From a virus (Duplodnaviria > Heunggongvirae > Uroviricota > Caudoviricetes), in IMG/VR virus record IMGVR_UViG_2563366802_000015: DNA of 10,148 nucleotides, one strand, 5' to 3'. A model generated the notes under the pieces. It saw nothing but the letters and a program-made list of their open reading frames with translations, searched no databases and was not told where the DNA came from. Position 1 is the first letter of the stretch, and every line of letters starts with the position of its first letter. Below are positions 1 to 10,148 of the stretch, in pieces. The translations under genes were made by a program, and so were the position numbers.

Positions 1-1011
1 TTATAACGTCACTCCGCCTTTTAGAGGATTCAGTGCGACGGCATTTTGCAGGTAGTCAGGCGCAAGGTGCGCATAGGCCATCGTCTGCTGAATGCTCGCA
101 TGTCCCAGAATCTGTTGCAGTGCGATTATATTGCCCCCATTCATCATGAAATGGCTTGCGAATGTATGCCGCAGGATGTGGGTTGCCTGATTGGGTGGTA
201 TATCTGGCTTCACTCTGCGTAAAATCCCGCAAAACTTCTCATAATCAACTTTGAATAATTTAGCGCTGGCCTCCTCTTTAACTTTTTTCTCCAGTTCCTC
301 AGAAATCGGCACGGTTCGCTTTTTACCGTTTTTGGTTTTCAGGAAGGTAACCCTGCAATTTGTAATCTGTGCTGGTTTTAGCGTGGCAACTTCCGTCCAT
401 CTTCCTCCAGTGCTCAGACATAAAAGTGCGACAAGTAAGTCATCACCATCCAAAACATTTAACAGTTTTTCGATTTCTGCTTTTTCCAGGAACGTCATTT
501 CAGGGTTGGCCTCCGCCAGTGGCGGCAGTCCGTGAATTGGGTGTTGCCCGGAAAATTCATCCAATTGAATTAATTTTGTGAACATGCCGGATAATCGGTA
601 CATGTCACGGTTTATCGTTGCGGCACTGATACCATCACGTAGTCGCATGGAACGATAATCCATCAAAGCTCTTTTGCTCATCCGGCTCACTGGTATATCA
701 CCTATGCCGCTGATGGTTTTGAGCAGATGATTAAACTCTTTTGTTCCATGCTCGTGGTTTTGCCCGTGATATTTCCACCAGATGTCCAGCAACTCACTCA
801 AAGTTCTGCGATCTGCTCGCTGACCTGCCCATTCTTTCTGGCTGGCGTAGGCGATTGTGTATCGCTCAAATGCTACAGCCTCAGCTTTTCTTTCAAATTT
901 CCTGCGGATGCGTTTTCCGTCGCGACCGCGAGGTCTAATGTCCACTTCATAGCGTCCATCATCGAGCTTCTTAATTGACATAAGAAAGCCCTCTGACGCT
1001 GTATTCACCAT
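1..1011 (-). CDS. int: Phage tyrosine integrase (P2 Int-like site-specific recombinase)
   Basis: 336-aa minus-strand ORF ending TAA at 1-3. The C-terminus has the tyrosine-recombinase catalytic signature (HILRHTFASHF ... LGHASIQQTMAYAHLAPDY, i.e. the R..H..R..Y box). The N-terminus (KKLDDGRYEVDIRPRGRDGKRIRRKF) matches P2-family integrases as I recall them. Length agrees with P2 Int (about 337 aa). An internal in-frame ATG at 981 is preceded by a GAGGG Shine-Dalgarno and is an alternative start. Confidence 0.9.
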   Translation of the reverse strand: MVNTASEGFLMSIKKLDDGRYEVDIRPRGRDGKRIRRKFERKAEAVAFERYTIAYASQKEWAGQRADRRTLSELLDIWWKYHGQNHEHGTKEFNHLLKTISGIGDIPVSRMSKRALMDYRSMRLRDGISAATINRDMYRLSGMFTKLIQLDEFSGQHPIHGLPPLAEANPEMTFLEKAEIEKLLNVLDGDDLLVALLCLSTGGRWTEVATLKPAQITNCRVTFLKTKNGKKRTVPISEELEKKVKEEASAKLFKVDYEKFCGILRRVKPDIPPNQATHILRHTFASHFMMNGGNIIALQQILGHASIQQTMAYAHLAPDYLQNAVALNPLKGGVTL

Positions 1012-1050: not shown

Positions 1051-1344
1051 TTAACCAGTCTGTTTTTCGGAGTGGTCTGATTCTGTTGGTTTTTGCCCAA
1101 TGTGTGCGAGAGCCGGCGCGATCTGACCAGCTTGTGGTGACGTATCACCAGTCATTAACCAGAGCGTATATTTTTTAAATAAAGGCGTATTTGTGACTCG
1201 CATAACGATGCTGAGACCAGGGTCTTTATGCCCACTTTCGTAATTTTTGACTGTTCCTAGAGCTATCCCGCTAATTTCGCTGAATTTCGCCTGTGTTAAG
1301 CCTTCTGCTTTCCTAATCGCTTTCAGTTTTTCGAATGTCTGCAT
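1051..1344 (-). CDS. C: P2 C-type immunity repressor (small HTH repressor)
   Basis: 97-aa minus-strand ORF immediately upstream of int and divergent from cox. It has an HTH-like N-terminus (LTQAKFSEISGIALGTVKNYESG) and a C-terminal tail (KYTLWLMTG...GQIAPALAHIGQ) closely resembling phage P2 C repressor (99 aa) as recalled. Position and size fit the P2 lysogeny module. Confidence 0.85.
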   Translation of the reverse strand: MQTFEKLKAIRKAEGLTQAKFSEISGIALGTVKNYESGHKDPGLSIVMRVTNTPLFKKYTLWLMTGDTSPQAGQIAPALAHIGQKPTESDHSEKQTG

Positions 1345-3253: not shown

Positions 3254-3525
3254 GTATTCGTATTGAAATTGGCGAACGTTATGTCGTTACCAGTGACAGC
3301 TTTCAGTTTATTCTCCACGAGAAAAAGAGAGCGGAAAGCGGTAAAAACGCCGGTCAGGAATGGCTGGCGGTGGTTGGTTATTACCCGAAATTAAGCCAGC
3401 TCGTTTCCGGCCTGATGCATCACGATATTCTGACCGGAAGCGCAAAATCTTTTGCTGATTTAAACGCGCAGGTTGAGCAACTCAGCAAGCGTTGTTCAGA
3501 GGCTTTTGGCTCACATGGACGTTAA
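3250..3525 (+). CDS. Hypothetical early-operon protein (P2 orf83-like position)
   Basis: 91-aa ORF with ATGA start/stop overlap with the preceding gene and GGAGA upstream. Its 3' end overlaps the start of gene A. Confidence 0.6.
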   Translation: MSIRIEIGERYVVTSDSFQFILHEKKRAESGKNAGQEWLAVVGYYPKLSQLVSGLMHHDILTGSAKSFADLNAQVEQLSKRCSEAFGSHGR

Positions 3526-5788
3526 AGCCTCCGGGCGTTTTGTCCCTCCGTCAGCATTTGCCGCAGGCACCGGTAAGACGTTTACCGGTGCTTATGCATG
3601 GAACGCGCCACGCGAGGCCGTCGGGCGCGAAAGACCCCTTACACGTGACGAGATGCGTCAGGTGCAAGGTGTTTTATCCACGATTAACCGCCTGCCTTAC
3701 TTTTTGCGTTCGCTGTTTACTTCACGCTATGACTACATCCGGCGCAATAAAAGCCCGGTGCACGGGTTTTATTTCCTCACATCCACTTTTCAGCGTCGTT
3801 TATGGCCGCGCATTGAGCGCGTGAATCAGCGCCATGAAATGAACACCGACGCGTCGTTGCTGTTTCTGGCAGAGCGTGACCACTATGCGCGCCTGCCTGG
3901 AATGAATGACAAGGAGCTGAAAAAGTTTGCCGCCCGTATCTCATCGCAGCTTTTCATGATGTATGAGGAACTCTGCGATGCATGGGTTGATGCGCATGGT
4001 GAAAAAGAATCGCTGTTTACGGATGAGGCGCAGGCTCACCTGTATGGTCATGTTGCTGGCGCTGCACGTGCTTTCAATATTTCCCCGCTCTACTGGAAAA
4101 AATACAGTAAAGGACAGATGACCACGAGGCAGGCATATTCTGCCATTGCCCGTCTGTTTAACGATGAGTGGTGGATTAGTCAGCTTAAAGGCCAGCGTAT
4201 GCGCTGGCATGAGGCGTTACTGATTGCTGTCGGGGAGGTCAATAAAGACCGTTCTCCTTATGCCAGTAAACATGCCATTCGTGATGTGCGTGCGCGCCGC
4301 CAGGCAAATCTGGAATTTCTTAAATCGTGTGACCTTGAAAACAGGGAAACCGGCGAGCGCATCGACCTTATCAGTAAGGTGATGGGCAGTATTTCTAATC
4401 CAGAAATTCGCCGGATGGAGCTGATGAACACCATTGCCGGTATTGAGCGTTACGCCGCCGCAGAGGGTGATTTGGGGATGTTTATCACGCTGACCGCGCC
4501 GTCAAAGTATCACCCGACACGTCAGGTCGGAAAAGGCGAAAGTAAAACCGTTCAGCTTAATCACGGCTGGAACGATGAGGCATTTAATCCAAAGGATGCG
4601 CAGCGTTATCTCTGCCGTATCTGGAGCCTGATGCGCACGGCATTCAAGGATAATGATTTACAGGTCTACGGTTTGCGTGTCGTCGAGCCACACCACGACG
4701 GAACGCCGCACTGGCATATGATGCTTTTTTGTAATCCGCGCCAGCGTAACCAGATTATCGAAATCATGCGTCGCTATGCGCTCAAAGAGGATGGCGACGA
4801 AAGAGGAGCCGCGCGAAACCGTTTTCAGGAAAAACACCTTAACCGGGGCGGTGCTGCGGGGTATATCGCGAAATACATCTCAAAAAATATCGACGGCTAT
4901 GCACTGGATGGGCAGCTCGATAACGATACCGGCAGACCGCTGAAAGATACTGCCGCGGCTGTTACCGCATGGGCGTCAACGTGGCGCATTCCGCAATTTA
5001 AAACGGTTGGCCTGCCGACAATGGGGGCTTACCGTGAACTACGCAAATTGCCTCGCGGCGTCAGCATTGCTGATGAGTTTGACGAGCGCGTCGAGGCTGC
5101 ACGCGCCGCCGCAGACAGTGGTGATTTTGCGCTGTATATCAGCGCGCAGGGTGGGGCAAATGTCCCGCGCGATTGCCAGACTGTCAGGGTTGCCCGTAGC
5201 CCGTCGGATGACGTTAACGAGTACGAGGAAGAAGTCGAGAGAGTGGTCGGCATTTACGCGCCGCATCTCGGCGCGCGTCATATTCATATCACCAGAACGA
5301 CGGACTGGCGCATTGTTCCGAAAGTGCCGGTCGTTGAGCCTTTGACTTTAAAAAGCGGCATCGCCGCGCCTCGGAGTCCTGTCAATAACTGTGGAAAACT
5401 CACCGGTGGTGATACTTCGTTACCGGCTCCCACACCTTCTGAGCACGCCGCAGCAGTGCTTAATCTGGTTGATGACAGTGTTATCGAATGGAGTGACCCG
5501 GAGGTCGTGAGGGCGCTCAGAGGTGCATTAAAACACGGTCGGAGAACGCCAAATCGTCAGCAAAGAAACGGAAGCTCGTTAAAACCACATGAAATTGCAC
5601 CATCGGCCAGACTGGCCCGGTCGGAACGAATGCAAATTACCCGTATCCGCGTTGACCTTGCTCAGAACGGTATCAGGCCGCAGCGATGGGAGCTTGAGGC
5701 GCTGGCGCGTGGCGCGACCGTAAATTATGATGGGAAAACGTTTTCATATCCGATTTCTGATGGTTGGGCGGGATTTGAAACAAACTAA
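3515..5788 (+). CDS. A: Rolling-circle replication initiator endonuclease, phage P2 gpA family
   Basis: Long ORF of 757 aa from ATG 3515 (the track's 3473 is an upstream TTG). It has an HUH motif (PHWHMMLF, nt 4709-4723) and paired catalytic tyrosines in YIAKY (Tyr codons 4862-4864 and 4874-4876), as in the P2 A / phiX174 A superfamily. Size and position after orf80-83 match P2 gene A (about 761 aa). Confidence 0.92.
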   Translation: MDVKASGRFVPPSAFAAGTGKTFTGAYAWNAPREAVGRERPLTRDEMRQVQGVLSTINRLPYFLRSLFTSRYDYIRRNKSPVHGFYFLTSTFQRRLWPRIERVNQRHEMNTDASLLFLAERDHYARLPGMNDKELKKFAARISSQLFMMYEELCDAWVDAHGEKESLFTDEAQAHLYGHVAGAARAFNISPLYWKKYSKGQMTTRQAYSAIARLFNDEWWISQLKGQRMRWHEALLIAVGEVNKDRSPYASKHAIRDVRARRQANLEFLKSCDLENRETGERIDLISKVMGSISNPEIRRMELMNTIAGIERYAAAEGDLGMFITLTAPSKYHPTRQVGKGESKTVQLNHGWNDEAFNPKDAQRYLCRIWSLMRTAFKDNDLQVYGLRVVEPHHDGTPHWHMMLFCNPRQRNQIIEIMRRYALKEDGDERGAARNRFQEKHLNRGGAAGYIAKYISKNIDGYALDGQLDNDTGRPLKDTAAAVTAWASTWRIPQFKTVGLPTMGAYRELRKLPRGVSIADEFDERVEAARAAADSGDFALYISAQGGANVPRDCQTVRVARSPSDDVNEYEEEVERVVGIYAPHLGARHIHITRTTDWRIVPKVPVVEPLTLKSGIAAPRSPVNNCGKLTGGDTSLPAPTPSEHAAAVLNLVDDSVIEWSDPEVVRALRGALKHGRRTPNRQQRNGSSLKPHEIAPSARLARSERMQITRIRVDLAQNGIRPQRWELEALARGATVNYDGKTFSYPISDGWAGFETN

Positions 5789-5802
5789 CAATAATGATTG
5801 AC

Positions 5803-5833
5803 ATGCTTGATTTTGTATTCACAAATCAAGCAT
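5803..5833. repeat. Perfect 11-bp inverted repeat ATGCTTGATTT / AAATCAAGCAT with 9-bp spacer, at the backbone-cargo boundary
   Basis: 5803-5813 is the exact reverse complement of 5823-5833. It sits just 3' of the gene A stop and upstream of the methyltransferase gene, overlapping a TTGACA hexamer (5798-5803). No U-tract follows, so it is not a classic intrinsic terminator. Confidence 0.4.
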
Positions 5834-5863
5834 CAAGTAAACATCGATGATGAGAAAGAACAA

Positions 5864-5872
5864 TGCTACAAT
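5864..5872 (+). promoter_or_regulatory. Candidate extended -10 promoter element (TGcTACAAT) for the methyltransferase gene
   Basis: TGnTACAAT at 5864-5872, about 28 nt upstream of the proposed TTG start (5900) and 16 nt upstream of the AGGAGG Shine-Dalgarno. The -35 region is weak, so this is only a candidate. Confidence 0.3.
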
Positions 5873-5899
5873 CCCCACAGCATTAGAAGGAGGTTTATC

Positions 5900-6949
5900 T
5901 TGATTAAGGTTGTTGATTTATTCTGTGGCGCGGGTGGCTTGACTCACGGTCTTCAGAAGTCGGGGCTTAATGTAGTTGCAGGTTATGATATAGATGCAGC
6001 CTGTCGATTTGCCTATGAGACAAATAATAAATCACTCTTTGTCCAGAAAAGTGTTACAGACATTGAGGACGGCGAATTAGTTAAATATTTCGAAGGAGCG
6101 AAGGTTCGAGTTTTGGCTGGTTGTGCCCCATGCCAACCTTTTTCAAGCTATACCAATAGTGCTAAATTAGGGGTAGTACGTTCAAAAGATAAAAGATGGT
6201 CTTTGCTTTATAGCTTTGCTAAGCAAATTAAATTTGCAAAGCCAGATATTATTACAATGGAAAACGTTCCCCGAGTGGTGAATCATAAGGTTTTTAAGGA
6301 CTTCATTAAGTCTCTTAAAAATGATGGCTATTTTGTTTGGTATGGGGTGGTGTTTTGTCCAGACTATGGAATGGCACAAAGTCGTTCAAGATTAGTGTTA
6401 TTGGCATCAAAATATGGAGAAATAGAAATAATTCCACCAACTCATGAGAAGAATGATTATAAAACGGTGCGAGATATAATCGGTAATCTTCCTGAAATTA
6501 GTGCCGGTGCTGTTCACGCTGGAGATAAACTACATCGCTCTGCATCATTATCTGATATTAATATAAAAAGAATAATGGCATCAAAACCTGGTGGAACATG
6601 GCGTGATTGGCCAGAAGAGCTAAGAGCAAAATGTCATACAAAAGAAAGTGGTTCTACATATACTGCTGTATATGGGAGAATGTGTTGGGATAAACTTGGA
6701 CCGACAATTACAACTCAATGTATTGGATATGGGAATGGACGCTTTGGGCACCCTGTCCAAAATAGAGCATTAAGTTTAAGAGAGGCTGCGCTATTACAGT
6801 CATTCCCAGAAAAGTATGAGTTTTGGCCTGATGATGTAAAAATTGAAATGAGAACAGTTGCGCGTTTAATAGGTAATGCTGTTCCTGTTAGGCTTGGTGA
6901 GGTCGTAGGTGAAACTATTTTAAAACATTTGTCAGAAATGAATATTTAA
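5900..6949 (+). CDS. DNA (cytosine-5)-methyltransferase (Dcm-like C5-MTase, probable modification subunit)
   Basis: Canonical C5-MTase motifs in order: motif I DLFCGAGG (5921-5938), motif IV PCQ (6128-6136), motif VI ENV (6260-6268), motif VIII QSRSR, then a variable region and motif X GNAVPV near the C-terminus. Proposed start is TTG at 5900, 6 nt after a perfect AGGAGG (5888-5893). The ORF track's 5798 start is an upstream in-frame TTG that would add 34 non-conserved residues. Confidence 0.9.
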   Translation: MIKVVDLFCGAGGLTHGLQKSGLNVVAGYDIDAACRFAYETNNKSLFVQKSVTDIEDGELVKYFEGAKVRVLAGCAPCQPFSSYTNSAKLGVVRSKDKRWSLLYSFAKQIKFAKPDIITMENVPRVVNHKVFKDFIKSLKNDGYFVWYGVVFCPDYGMAQSRSRLVLLASKYGEIEIIPPTHEKNDYKTVRDIIGNLPEISAGAVHAGDKLHRSASLSDINIKRIMASKPGGTWRDWPEELRAKCHTKESGSTYTAVYGRMCWDKLGPTITTQCIGYGNGRFGHPVQNRALSLREAALLQSFPEKYEFWPDDVKIEMRTVARLIGNAVPVRLGEVVGETILKHLSEMNI

Positions 6950-6961
6950 AACTTATGTCAT

Positions 6962-6985
6962 CCCCCCTGTCAAAAAACAGGGGGG
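6962..6985. terminator. Bidirectional intrinsic terminator hairpin between convergent genes
   Basis: Perfect 9-bp GC-rich stem (CCCCCCTGT 6962-6970 pairing with ACAGGGGGG 6977-6985) with a 6-nt loop, flanked by A/T-rich sequence on both sides. It lies between the MTase stop (6947-6949) and the minus-strand gene stop (6991-6993). Confidence 0.6.
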
Positions 6986-6990
6986 TATAA

Positions 6991-8195
6991 TTAGATTCCC
7001 TCAACTATTTTCATAATTCTAGCTGCATCATTCTTTTTGTCTTGATATTCAGCATAGGCTTGTTTTGATTGCACGATTAGGTCATTATATGTCAATATTT
7101 TTCCATTGATAGAAAGTAATTGCATATTTATAAAGTGTTGGTTCTCTTGTAAATATCCAGAGCCAACCAGGAATATTACTTCTATATGCGGTATATTTCC
7201 ACCTGGGCAATTTTTAGGGTTATTGGAGAACCATTGTGTCGTTGCCTGTACATATTTATTACCTTGTGCGACTAGGTTCATTATATCTGGGTGCACTTTA
7301 GGTCGTTTCATCTCAATAATTACATGCTTGCCAGAAACGGTTTTGAAAGCGATATCAATACGAGCACCGCTAGCAGCATCAGGGTTTATCTGTTTTAGTT
7401 CCTTGGTCAATGTTTGCTCCATAACAGATGTGCCTGTGACTCTTTCCCATGAAGGATCCAATAACCATAAATGATCATATAAATACATTTGTACAGCTCT
7501 TTCAAGCTGATTTTCATCAGTTATTTTTTGGAATTTTTCAATTACTTTAAGGCGTTGCGAAGTAATTTCATAAAACATGCTTGCTTCAATGTCATTGACA
7601 GATGCAAATACATCTTTAAAATTTTCTGATTGAAGGTTGCTTATTTTATCTAATGCATCAAGGTTGTCTTGAATTCTAAGTCTTTCAAAGGCTAATACCG
7701 TATTTTTTAATACGGTTTTTCTTGCTGCTTTTTGTTCTTCCTCATTACCAGAAAAACGGAATGTGTTTACTCGTCCAATTAACTTTTCGGCACTTTCTCT
7801 CTCATGTTTTTTGAGAGAATTCAGCCATTCACTTACTATTGGAGTATTGCTTTTAACTTCATTTACTCCTTTTTCGCGTCTCCATTTATCCCAATCTTTA
7901 TCGATTAGTTGTAGCGTTCTTTCCAGAAAACCTTTAAGTACAGGGTATCTTGGATCATTCTGTTGTAGTTTTTGACGAGAAGATGTTGCCATATCAGGCT
8001 TTTCGTTATCATCTAGAAAATCGGCGACTATTTCACCGACCAGATAATTGGTGAATACTTTAGCACTTCCAAATTCTAATAATATGTCCTCCTCAAAAAC
8101 ACGTCCGTGAGAGATTACAGTAATGCTGTTGTTAGATATTTCAGGGTCTTTCTTTAACTGTGATGGCTTAACTACACTGCCAATGTACCCACTAA
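6991..8195 (-). pseudogene. C-terminal fragment of IS5-disrupted GHKL-ATPase/nuclease gene (carries the PD-(D/E)xK-like motif)
   Basis: The minus-strand ORF 6991-8265 starts inside IS5; its native part begins at the IS5 boundary (8195). It contains a restriction-endonuclease-like core, GARIDIAF-x11-VIIEMKRPK (Asp codon 7354-7356, Glu 7312-7314, Lys 7306-7308). Its frame is continuous with the upstream fragment once IS5 plus one target duplication is removed. Confidence 0.75.
8192..8195. repeat. IS5 target-site duplication, left copy (CTAA)
   Basis: CTAA immediately outside the left IS5 terminus and identical to 9391-9394. IS5 is known to make 4-bp duplications at YTAR targets. Confidence 0.8.
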
Positions 8196-8211
8196 GGAAG
8201 GTGCGAACAAG
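8196..8211. repeat. IS5 terminal inverted repeat (transposase-proximal end)
   Basis: GGAAGGTGCGAACAAG matches the IS5 terminus as recalled and is a 15/16 inverted match to 9375-9390. Confidence 0.85.
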
Positions 8212-8218
8212 TCCCTGA

Positions 8219-9244
<1,026 letters not shown>

Positions 9245-9374
9245 AAACTGGGGATAACGCCTTAAATGGCGAAGAAACGGTCTAAATAGGCTGATTCAAG
9301 GCATTTACGGGAGAAAAAATCGGCTCAAACATGAAGAAATGAAATGACTGAGTCAGCCGAGAAGAATTTCCCCG

Positions 9375-9390
9375 CTTATTCGCACCTTCC
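9375..9390. repeat. IS5 terminal inverted repeat (distal end)
   Basis: CTTATTCGCACCTTCC, whose reverse complement GGAAGGTGCGAATAAG matches 8196-8211 with one mismatch. Confidence 0.85.
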
Positions 9391-9394
9391 CTAA
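9391..9394. repeat. IS5 target-site duplication, right copy (CTAA)
   Basis: CTAA immediately outside the right IS5 terminus, identical to 8192-8195. Confidence 0.8.
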
Positions 9395-10148
9395 CTTTTA
9401 CATCTTTTCCTTCAAAGGTAATAGTATTTGGTAATATGTTTTTTTGTGTGATGTTTGTGCAGGATTTTATCCTTTCAGGGTCGGATTCGCCAAATTCCCA
9501 AATGAACTCGAGATCTGAAAGGAAATCTCTATCTGCCGGTGTAATATCGGTCCCATTAATTTTAACTGTAAAGTTATGGTTGGGGCCAATAATGCTAAAT
9601 CGACGAGCTATTCGCTTTCTGAGGTAAGTTTGAGTCCTATCAATGGCTTTTTTTAGTTCAAATAATTTAATTGTAGTGCCGTAAGCAAGATTTTCGGGTA
9701 TTTCAAGGGAGTCAGCAATATAGTTTTTTGATTCTTTGATACTTTGCTGTAAATCTTTGACATCTACCTCAAAGGCCTGAGGCTGTTCCCCCTTTTTGTA
9801 CGAATAAACTTGGATTTTATTGGCAAGTGAAAACATGGCAAGCTTACCAATACCTTTTCTGCCCATAACTTGACGTTTTAGATGATCGCTTTTGGCTCTT
9901 CCATGTTCCCTGCGAGCATAACCGACTTTTAGGAACTTATTAATAATGTCATCTTTAGACATGCCATGACCATCATCTTTAATGATGACCTCTCCTTTCT
10001 CAACATCAAGTGTAATTTCTACATTTTGAGCATCTGCATCCCATGCATTTGATATAATCTCAGTTAGTACCGCGGGAGTATTGGAATAGAGACTCATCCC
10101 TAGGTGATTTAGCACATTCAAATCAATTTTAATTTCGAAATCTGACAT
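9391..10148 (-). pseudogene. N-terminal fragment of IS5-disrupted gene: GHKL-superfamily (MORC/HSP90/MutL-like) ATPase domain
   Basis: Minus-strand ORF starting ATG at 10146-10148. GHKL Bergerat-fold motifs occur in canonical order: N-box EIISNAWDA (about aa 30-38), G1 box DDGHG (aa 58-62), G2 box GRKGIGK (aa 96-102) and GTT (aa 157-159). The annotated ORF runs to 9282, but its last 36 codons (9282-9390) are IS5 sequence, so the native part ends at the IS5 junction. Confidence 0.75.

Follow-up and report, generated by a model that had tools for sequence, protein, structure and literature searches.

A perfect palindrome upstream of a phage-borne methylase gene is probably a junction by-product beside a conserved promoter

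Introduction

The interval between replication gene A and portal gene Q of P2-like phages (gpA-gpQ) is a described hotspot for defence genes (Rousset et al. 2022, PMC9122126; PMC13586616). The cassettes that occupy this slot are of the moron type, that is, foreign cargo of lower G+C content equipped with its own promoter and terminator, and sister phages carry unrelated systems at the very same place, e.g., tin/old in P2, a reverse-transcriptase locus in pro147, and a Dcm methylase together with DUF262 and HEPN genes in P24B2. A restriction-modification (R-M) family that pairs an m5C methylase with a GHKL-ATPase protein of the paraMORC3 type was predicted by Iyer et al. 2008 (PMC2292703). The BbrUII/HgiDII systems combine an endonuclease of the NF050001 family with a C5 methylase (PF00145) in convergent orientation, and M.HgiDII is known to recognise GTCGAC (PMC5867850).

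R-M systems also differ in how they time the expression of the methylase (M) relative to the endonuclease (R). In C-protein systems, a helix-turn-helix (HTH) controller is encoded beside the R gene and the promoters carry a palindromic element, the C-box, conserved at the C/R promoter. In SsoII/EcoRII-type autoregulation, a DNA-binding region of ~70 aa precedes motif I at the N-terminus of the methylase, and in CfrBI the R-M promoter itself is methylation-sensitive (bioRxiv 10.64898/2025.12.04.692298; review PMC3874152). Here, we analyse a 10,148-nt stretch of viral DNA (IMG/VR record IMGVR_UViG_2563366802_000015; hereafter, the window), in which a perfect 11-bp inverted repeat lies between phage gene A and a methylase gene. 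A preliminary description, made from the letters of the window alone, had proposed that this palindrome might be the operator of the methylase gene, or else an RNA hairpin isolating it from upstream transcription.

Results and discussion

A Type II R-M cassette in the gpA-gpQ hotspot

The window represents the early region of a P2-like prophage. The genes for the integrase (1-1011, minus strand) and repressor C (1051-1344, minus strand; the sole HTH-encoding ORF of the window) are followed by cox (1497-1769), B and small early ORFs, and replication gene A (3473-5788; Phage_GPA, E = 2e-122). Two pairs of direct repeats lie in the C-cox intergenic region, where Pe and Pc are located, i.e., TATTGGTGAC at 1357-1366 and 1391-1400 (34 nt apart) and CCTAGAAAGGACAGG-like repeats (CCTAGAAAGGAC twice) at 1423-1437 and 1443-1457 (20 nt apart), and these are likely the putative C and Cox binding repeats of the prophage's immunity type. 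Downstream of gene A, the G+C content falls from ~0.52 in the phage part to 0.34-0.40, and the cargo consists of a C5 cytosine methyltransferase gene and, on the opposite strand, a gene for a GHKL-ATPase protein that is split by an IS5-type transposase gene. The same locus is found in phage PhiR44_1 (PV340563), where an intact 652-aa gene annotated as paraMORC3 is followed by portal gene Q. The window ends before gpQ, which lies downstream of the cassette in PhiR44_1 as well as in the related loci L101 and L103. That is, the Dcm methylase, the convergent paraMORC3 endonuclease and the terminator hairpin described below sit between gene A and gpQ of a P2-like phage, in the P2 gpA-gpQ hotspot.

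The methylase is a 349-aa protein of the Dcm type (5900-6949, plus strand; PF00145, E = 9e-56; TIGR00675), annotated as 'Dcm protein' in PhiR44_1. It has no N-terminal extension, with the Pfam match beginning at residue 2 and motif I (DLFCGAGG) at residue 6, and therefore does not have the architecture of SsoII/EcoRII-type autoregulators; longer ORF calls of 380-383 aa represent in-frame upstream extensions without conservation. The endonuclease gene is encoded on the minus strand, with its C-terminal part (paraMORC3 / BbrUII-HgiDII family) at 6991-8195 and its N-terminal, GHKL ATPase part at 9391-10148 (HATPase_c_3, E = 6e-26), collinear with positions 7111-8315 and 8312-9069 of PhiR44_1, respectively. 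The window copy shares 98.6-99.9% DNA identity with PhiR44_1 but is split by an IS5 insertion of 1195 bp (8196-9390, plus strand; DDE_Tnp_1 and DUF772) flanked by a CTAA target duplication (8192-8195 and 9391-9394). As read from the sequence, IS5 inactivates the endonuclease gene and leaves the methylase orphaned in the window copy. The IS5-endonuclease junction was found in 0 of 5,426 complete E. coli genomes.

The intact endonuclease of PhiR44_1 scores 751.4 bits against NF050001 (cut-off 550; residues 4-651) and matches REase_II, the Type II REase model of PADLOC, at 2e-91. Because of these two matches, the cargo is classed by sequence as a Type II R-M cassette of the BbrUII/HgiDII family, and it resembles these systems in its NF050001 endonuclease, its PF00145 methylase and the convergence of the two genes; further, P0087, a homologue of the methylase, is labelled HgiDII by its source database. 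There is also a difference from M.HgiDII, in that the window contains 0 copies of GTCGAC and the promoter box discussed below is CATCGATG. Compared to other cassettes of the hotspot, this one is distinguished by carrying a BbrUII/HgiDII-family Type II system and by the knockout of its endonuclease by IS5; the locus would thus be a further self-promoted R-M cassette of the P2 defence hotspot, its endonuclease killed by the insertion. A Vibrio cholerae WASA paper that mentions paraMORC deals with other systems.

The preliminary description had considered the cargo to be an R-M system that lacks a controller protein, and both parts of this view hold. No C-protein-like HTH gene was found in the cassette, either in the window or in the intact PhiR44_1 copy, and the small ORFs of PhiR44_1 that separate the endonuclease gene from gpQ gave zero HTH matches. 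Accordingly, although the need to time M versus R expression is shared with C-protein systems, the locus cannot be counted among them, having neither an HTH controller beside the R gene nor a conserved C-box at a C/R promoter; its palindrome lies upstream of M rather than at an R/C promoter and, as shown below, is not conserved. The space separating the convergent M and R genes holds a hairpin rich in G+C, CCCCCCTGT-caaaaa-ACAGGGGGG (6962-6985), which overlaps a terminator-like site detected by the terminator scan (6980-7001) and is probably a bidirectional terminator that closes the cassette.

The methylase has its own predicted promoter

Upstream of the methylase, all on the plus strand, are found a box CATCGATGA (5842-5850), of which TCGATG (5844-5849) occupies the -35 slot, a 17-nt spacer, an extended -10 element TGcTACAAT (5864-5872; 27 nt before the start codon), and a Shine-Dalgarno sequence AAGGAGG (5887-5893) placed 6 nt upstream of the TTG start at 5900. 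The -10 element conforms to the extended sigma-70 pattern (TGn followed by TAnnnT, suitably placed), and transcription is predicted, from the spacing, to start near 5879. The features named in the preliminary description, i.e., the two arms, the overlapping TTGACA, TGcTACAAT, AAGGAGG and the TTG start, are all present to within 1-2 bases.

Conservation supports the prediction that the methylase has its own sigma-70 promoter and a strong ribosome-binding site, as had been suggested from the single sequence. In an alignment of nine cassette relatives with 67-100% protein identity (alignment A2), the invariant columns of the -35 region are 5840, 5842-5847 and 5849 (CATCGA.G) and those of the -10 element are T5864, G5865, T5867, A5868 and T5872 (TG.TA...T), while flanks and spacer vary; G5889 and G5892 of the Shine-Dalgarno sequence and the start codon are invariant as well. 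The activity of the cassette promoter is presumed from these elements. Since the promoter belongs to the methylase itself, transcription should be possible in the lysogen, while the early promoter Pe is repressed.

In contrast, the TTGACA hexamer (5798-5803, plus strand), which shares one base with the left arm of the palindrome, an overlap pointed out in the preliminary description, cannot serve the methylase promoter as its -35. A distance of 61 nt separates it from the extended -10 downstream, it has no usable -10 of its own at 16-18 nt (ACAAAT matches 3/6 positions and lacks A2), and the promoter scan returned nothing for it.

The palindrome is unusual in the window and missing from relatives

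The left arm, ATGCTTGATTT (5803-5813), and the right arm, AAATCAAGCAT (5823-5833), are complementary at 11/11 positions around a 9-nt loop and form the longest perfect inverted repeat of the window. The second longest, a perfect 10-bp repeat with a 5-nt loop, lies at 3567-3591, near the 5' end of gene A. Of random windows of matching composition, generated with a first-order Markov model, 5% contain a perfect repeat of 11 bp or more whose loop is 20 nt or shorter; hence, the palindrome is unusual, yet not extraordinary for a genome scan. No other copy of the arm half-site was found in the window, in PhiR44_1 or at the opposite boundary of the cassette, and in E. coli genomes the palindrome occurs only at the gene A-methylase locus.

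The exact junction is present in ~42 copies, comprising 30 complete E. coli genomes, 7 IMG/VR contigs, 4 metagenome contigs and PhiR44_1, and the spacer is 100% identical in all of them. Because these copies are all identical, they carry no information on constraint, and purifying selection is neither shown nor excluded by them. We therefore rely on the non-identical cassettes, whose methylases share 89-90% (L101/L102), 83% (L185), 82% (L186) and 80% (L187) identity with that of the window, with further relatives at 75-76% (L103/L104) and 67-68% (L106/L107); these close relatives come from viral contigs and Logan contigs, and among the genome-contig matches listed the identity is 60% or less.

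The palindrome is missing from all non-identical relatives, including L101/L102, L185, L186 and L187, which keep the same methylase-endonuclease pair and the same promoter. Consistent with this result, alignment A2 has no conserved column upstream of 5840, and the equivalent stretches of four other junction variants fold, as DNA, with z-scores of -0.25, +1.1, +0.7 and -1.8, compared to -4.4 (-10.9 kcal/mol) for the window. The best inverted repeats in the regions upstream of 117 non-redundant family members are about as good as expected from shuffled sequences, with a small excess, and the window is the single outlier. Upstream palindromes are thus not recurrent in the methylase family. The preliminary description had named conservation in homologous cargo loci as a check on its operator proposal, and the check turns against it.

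These comparisons bear directly on the proposal that a dimeric host or early phage protein binds the palindrome as an operator or activator site and tunes the methylase promoter. The dyad is perfect, its arm centres are 20 bp (about two helical turns) apart, and its centre, at about -61 from the predicted start, coincides with the classical position of a class I activator; moreover, given that a C protein is lacking, some other factor would be required if regulation exists. However, a site of this kind would have to be dispensed with by every non-identical relative that kept the same promoter, and the palindrome, being upstream of the -35 and overlapping none of the -35, the -10 or the start site, is poorly positioned for repression. 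It also bears no likeness to the C and Cox repeats, occurs just once in the window and once in PhiR44_1, and marks a single locus in E. coli genomes. We consider a protein-binding site quite improbable on this evidence. Specific candidates fared no better: the palindrome is unrelated to the TATTGGTGAC and CCTAGAAAGGAC repeat pairs of the Pe/Pc region and hence is not a C or Cox site, and none of the CRP, IHF, Fur and Ogr (TGT-N12-ACA) consensus sequences fits it when compared by eye.

Folding of the palindrome as RNA

As RNA, the palindrome folds at -13 kcal/mol (z = -4.2), far beyond shuffled sequences, with four further flanking pairs (UUGA/UCAA) extending the stem, and it begins 15 nt after the gene A stop codon. 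The terminator scan found no terminator between gene A and the methylase, which makes read-through from gene A likely. A hairpin on the read-through cox-B-A mRNA made from Pe during lytic growth could then stabilise the 3' end, serve as a site of processing or provide partial insulation, and it would set gene A expression apart from the cassette. Insulation does occur in some relatives, as a true intrinsic terminator precedes the cassette promoter in L103/L104, and only there. On the other hand, the stem is A+U-rich (3/11 pairs are G-C), the sequence that follows, CAAGUAAACAUCG, provides no U-tract, and, taken over its full 111 nt, the spacer does not outdo its shuffles in folding (z = -0.7). 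Further, the cassette can do without such an element, since the corresponding position holds no hairpin and no terminator in L101, L185, L186 and L187. On balance, we regard an RNA function as unlikely. Intrinsic (rho-independent) termination in particular does not apply, given the A+U-rich stem, the missing U-tract and an empty scan at 5798-5840; the combined promoter and terminator scan gave nothing at the palindrome, and an Rfam search with it returned sub-threshold noise only.

Origin of the arms and the junction account

It is our assessment that the palindrome is probably a by-product, specific to one lineage, of the junction formed when the cassette was joined to the end of phage gene A, and that it lies beside an ordinary, conserved moron promoter instead of being a control element of the methylase; this reading is drawn from sequence comparison, and from it we infer that the palindrome lacks a function. 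The stretch of 45 nt that separates the promoter from the stop codon of gene A would be junction debris, in which the left arm would derive from a fossil methylase 5' end and the right arm would have arisen in the window lineage only. Expression of the cassette would depend on its own promoter, i.e., CATCGATGA, the 17-nt spacer, TGcTACAAT, a leader of ~20 nt, AAGGAGG and TTG.

In most P2-like phages, homology with the window stops where gene A ends, and the left arm lies within a segment just beyond that point, ATGATTGACATGCTTGATTTTGTATTC (5794-5820, plus strand), which resembles the first nine codons of the methylase family. It reads ATG ATT GAC ATG CTT GAT TTT GTA TTC, or MIDMLDFVF, and the family starts with MIEAVDLFC. 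Against family starts such as ATGATTGAAGCGGTTGATTTGTTCTGT, 18/27 positions match in the window and 19/27 in pro147; 0.9% and 0%, respectively, of the ATG-started 27-mers of the window score as well. With the genuine dcm start at 5901-5919, 106 nt downstream, the relic shares 74% identity. Phages of the pro147 type, which carry other cargo, including reverse transcriptase, have AATGATTGA(A/C)ATG(G/C)TTGATTTTG right after the gene A stop, a shared segment that spans the left arm and not the right one. That the relic is common to these phages suggests serial replacement of cassettes at this site. Relics reading MIDMLDFVF or MIEMVDFAS were observed in the window (5794-5820), in L002 (3145-3171) and in L175-L183.

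The right arm is specific to the junction lineage of the window and is absent from L101/L102, L186 and L187. In L185, AAATCA-TGAAGTAA (AAATCA-TGAAG) stands where the window has AAATCAAGCATCAAGTAA, and the difference amounts to about AGCAT, the exact complement of ATGCT in the left arm. A short TGATTT/AAATCA complementarity, present in L185 as well, could accordingly have been extended to a perfect 11 bp, for instance by a template-switch 'quasi-palindrome correction' that added AGCAT. Quasi-palindrome template-switch mutations have reportedly been described in E. coli in work by Ripley and Lovett, and the likeness lies in a cluster of changes by which an imperfect inverted repeat becomes perfect. 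We infer such an origin of the right arm purely from this comparison.

Several observations sit less comfortably with the junction account. A perfect 11/11 repeat falls exactly in the 111-nt intergenic spacer, with a chance of 5% per 10-kb window. The core of the left arm, TTGATTTT, is retained in L101/L102 at the same spacing, 18 nt from TCAAGTAAAC; L101/L102 and L185 also show a weaker form, ACAT..TTGATTTT, about as far upstream of the promoter. Finally, AAATCAA...TTGATTT inverted repeats, with the arm order opposite to that of the window, lie upstream of the distant homologues L027 (about -96 to -66 from the methylase start), L077 (about -130 to -80; arms AAATCAAGCC/GGCTTGATTT) and L167 (about -125 to -107). 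Both 7-mers, AAATCAA and TTGATTT, are found in 5 loci versus ~1.4 expected, and these repeats may reflect the A/T-tract composition of the regions.

Alternatively, the palindrome might owe its place to exchange itself, as a cruciform or hairpin at which cassettes recombine. It lies exactly at the end of homology with other P2-like phages, and its left arm is common to pro147-type phages with other cargo. Yet the right boundary of the cassette has no matching repeat, other junction classes lack the palindrome, and the pro147-type phages keep the left arm only. Published analyses of the hotspot credit exchange to recombination in the flanking core genes, and palindromes or inverted repeats go unmentioned in them (PMC9122126, PMC13586616). 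A role as recombination hotspot is, in our view, highly improbable. Under the junction account, which we continue to favour, the palindrome itself carries little weight and should not be treated as an operator; more generally, junction debris can take the form of a perfect dyad at the edge of a cargo region. What deserves following at this locus is instead the TCGA box, conserved at the -35 position of the promoter.

A TCGA box in the -35 slot travels with the methylase gene

The 117 non-redundant upstream regions belong to methylase homologues with 51-100% identity, and 39 of them combine TCGA in the -35 slot with a -10 hexamer downstream, at exactly 17 nt in 37; shuffled controls had 5.3 on average and never more than 13. 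The canonical TTGA occupies the same slot in only 10/117 regions and other tetramers in 1-7. The consensus of the box is (C/A)TCGA(T/G)(G/A)TTT, with the variants CATCGATG, CTCGAG and CTCGATG, and it lies at -50 to -75 from the methylase start. In the window, TCGATG is part of the 8-bp palindrome CATCGATG, and the named Peduovirus P24B2 has CTCGAG, 17 nt and TATACT. Carriers of the box include L016, L017, L022, L052, L062, L081, L086, L103-L107, L110-L112, L114, L126, L130, L136-L151, L167-L169, L184 and others.

The box is not tied to the paraMORC3 partner, being present in 27 representatives without and 9 with paraMORC3. Other partners of the boxed methylase are DUF262/GmrSD_N and HEPN (MAE_28990) genes or an SNF2 helicase, and the loci without paraMORC3 include L136 (5072-6893), L169 (5006-6866), L016 (5057-6846), L126 (5767-7053), L184 (1405-3280) and L081 (5509-8652). 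That is, the box travels with the methylase gene whatever the effector (paraMORC3, DUF262 with HEPN, or SNF2 helicase).

The target-recognition region of the methylases is as conserved as the catalytic core (65% versus 62% mean identity), which argues for the same or a similar specificity across the family. GTCGAC, the M.HgiDII site (PMC5867850), contains TCGA, but the promoter boxes differ from GTCGAC as a whole. With respect to site avoidance, GTCGAC counts are equally low in PhiR44_1 (3) and P2 (2), and the counts of ATCGAT and CTCGAG are uninformative. The box keeps its C where a C-to-T change would better the -35, and this suggests selection beyond promoter strength; if the C of the box were methylated, deamination would also favour the change from C to T.

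Candidate functions of the box are methylation-dependent control, as in CfrBI, and binding of the methylase, and we put these forward as a lead and not as a result. The likeness to CfrBI consists of a short CG-containing palindrome (CATCGATG, core TCGA) in the methylase -35 that is conserved with the methylase gene. The window thus has the architecture that CfrBI-type self-methylation control would be expected to have, although TCGA or CATCGATG is only a candidate target of the methylase, and the genes here are convergent, without the common divergent promoter region of CfrBI. The box, standing precisely where a canonical TTGACA would be expected, could be an autoregulatory switch that works independently of a C protein, a tentative idea that we rate as possible but doubtful. 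By one route, the methylase would methylate the box, and the 5-methyl-C at -34 would present the same C5 methyl group as the consensus T; by the other, the bound methylase would occlude the -35. If true, a burst of methylase synthesis on entering a naive cell would be followed by self-limitation, and a self-methylation or self-binding switch of this kind would explain methylase timing in the widespread R-M and R-M-like modules without a C protein. The nucleation motif of H-NS, tCGATAAATT, was also considered as an explanation of the TCGAT box and was set aside, as the resemblance extends to TCGAT only.

In junction classes other than the window lineage, the region between gene A and the cassette holds additional elements that are absent from the latter. 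A LexA-box-like dyad (TACTGT-N-ACAGT) was observed in L101 (3633-3652), L103 (3276-3295) and L185 (478-497), and a small tum/DinI-like gene (e.g., the DinI-family ORF at 451-933 of L187) also occurs there, an arrangement comparable to that of SOS-inducible prophages of the phage 186 type.
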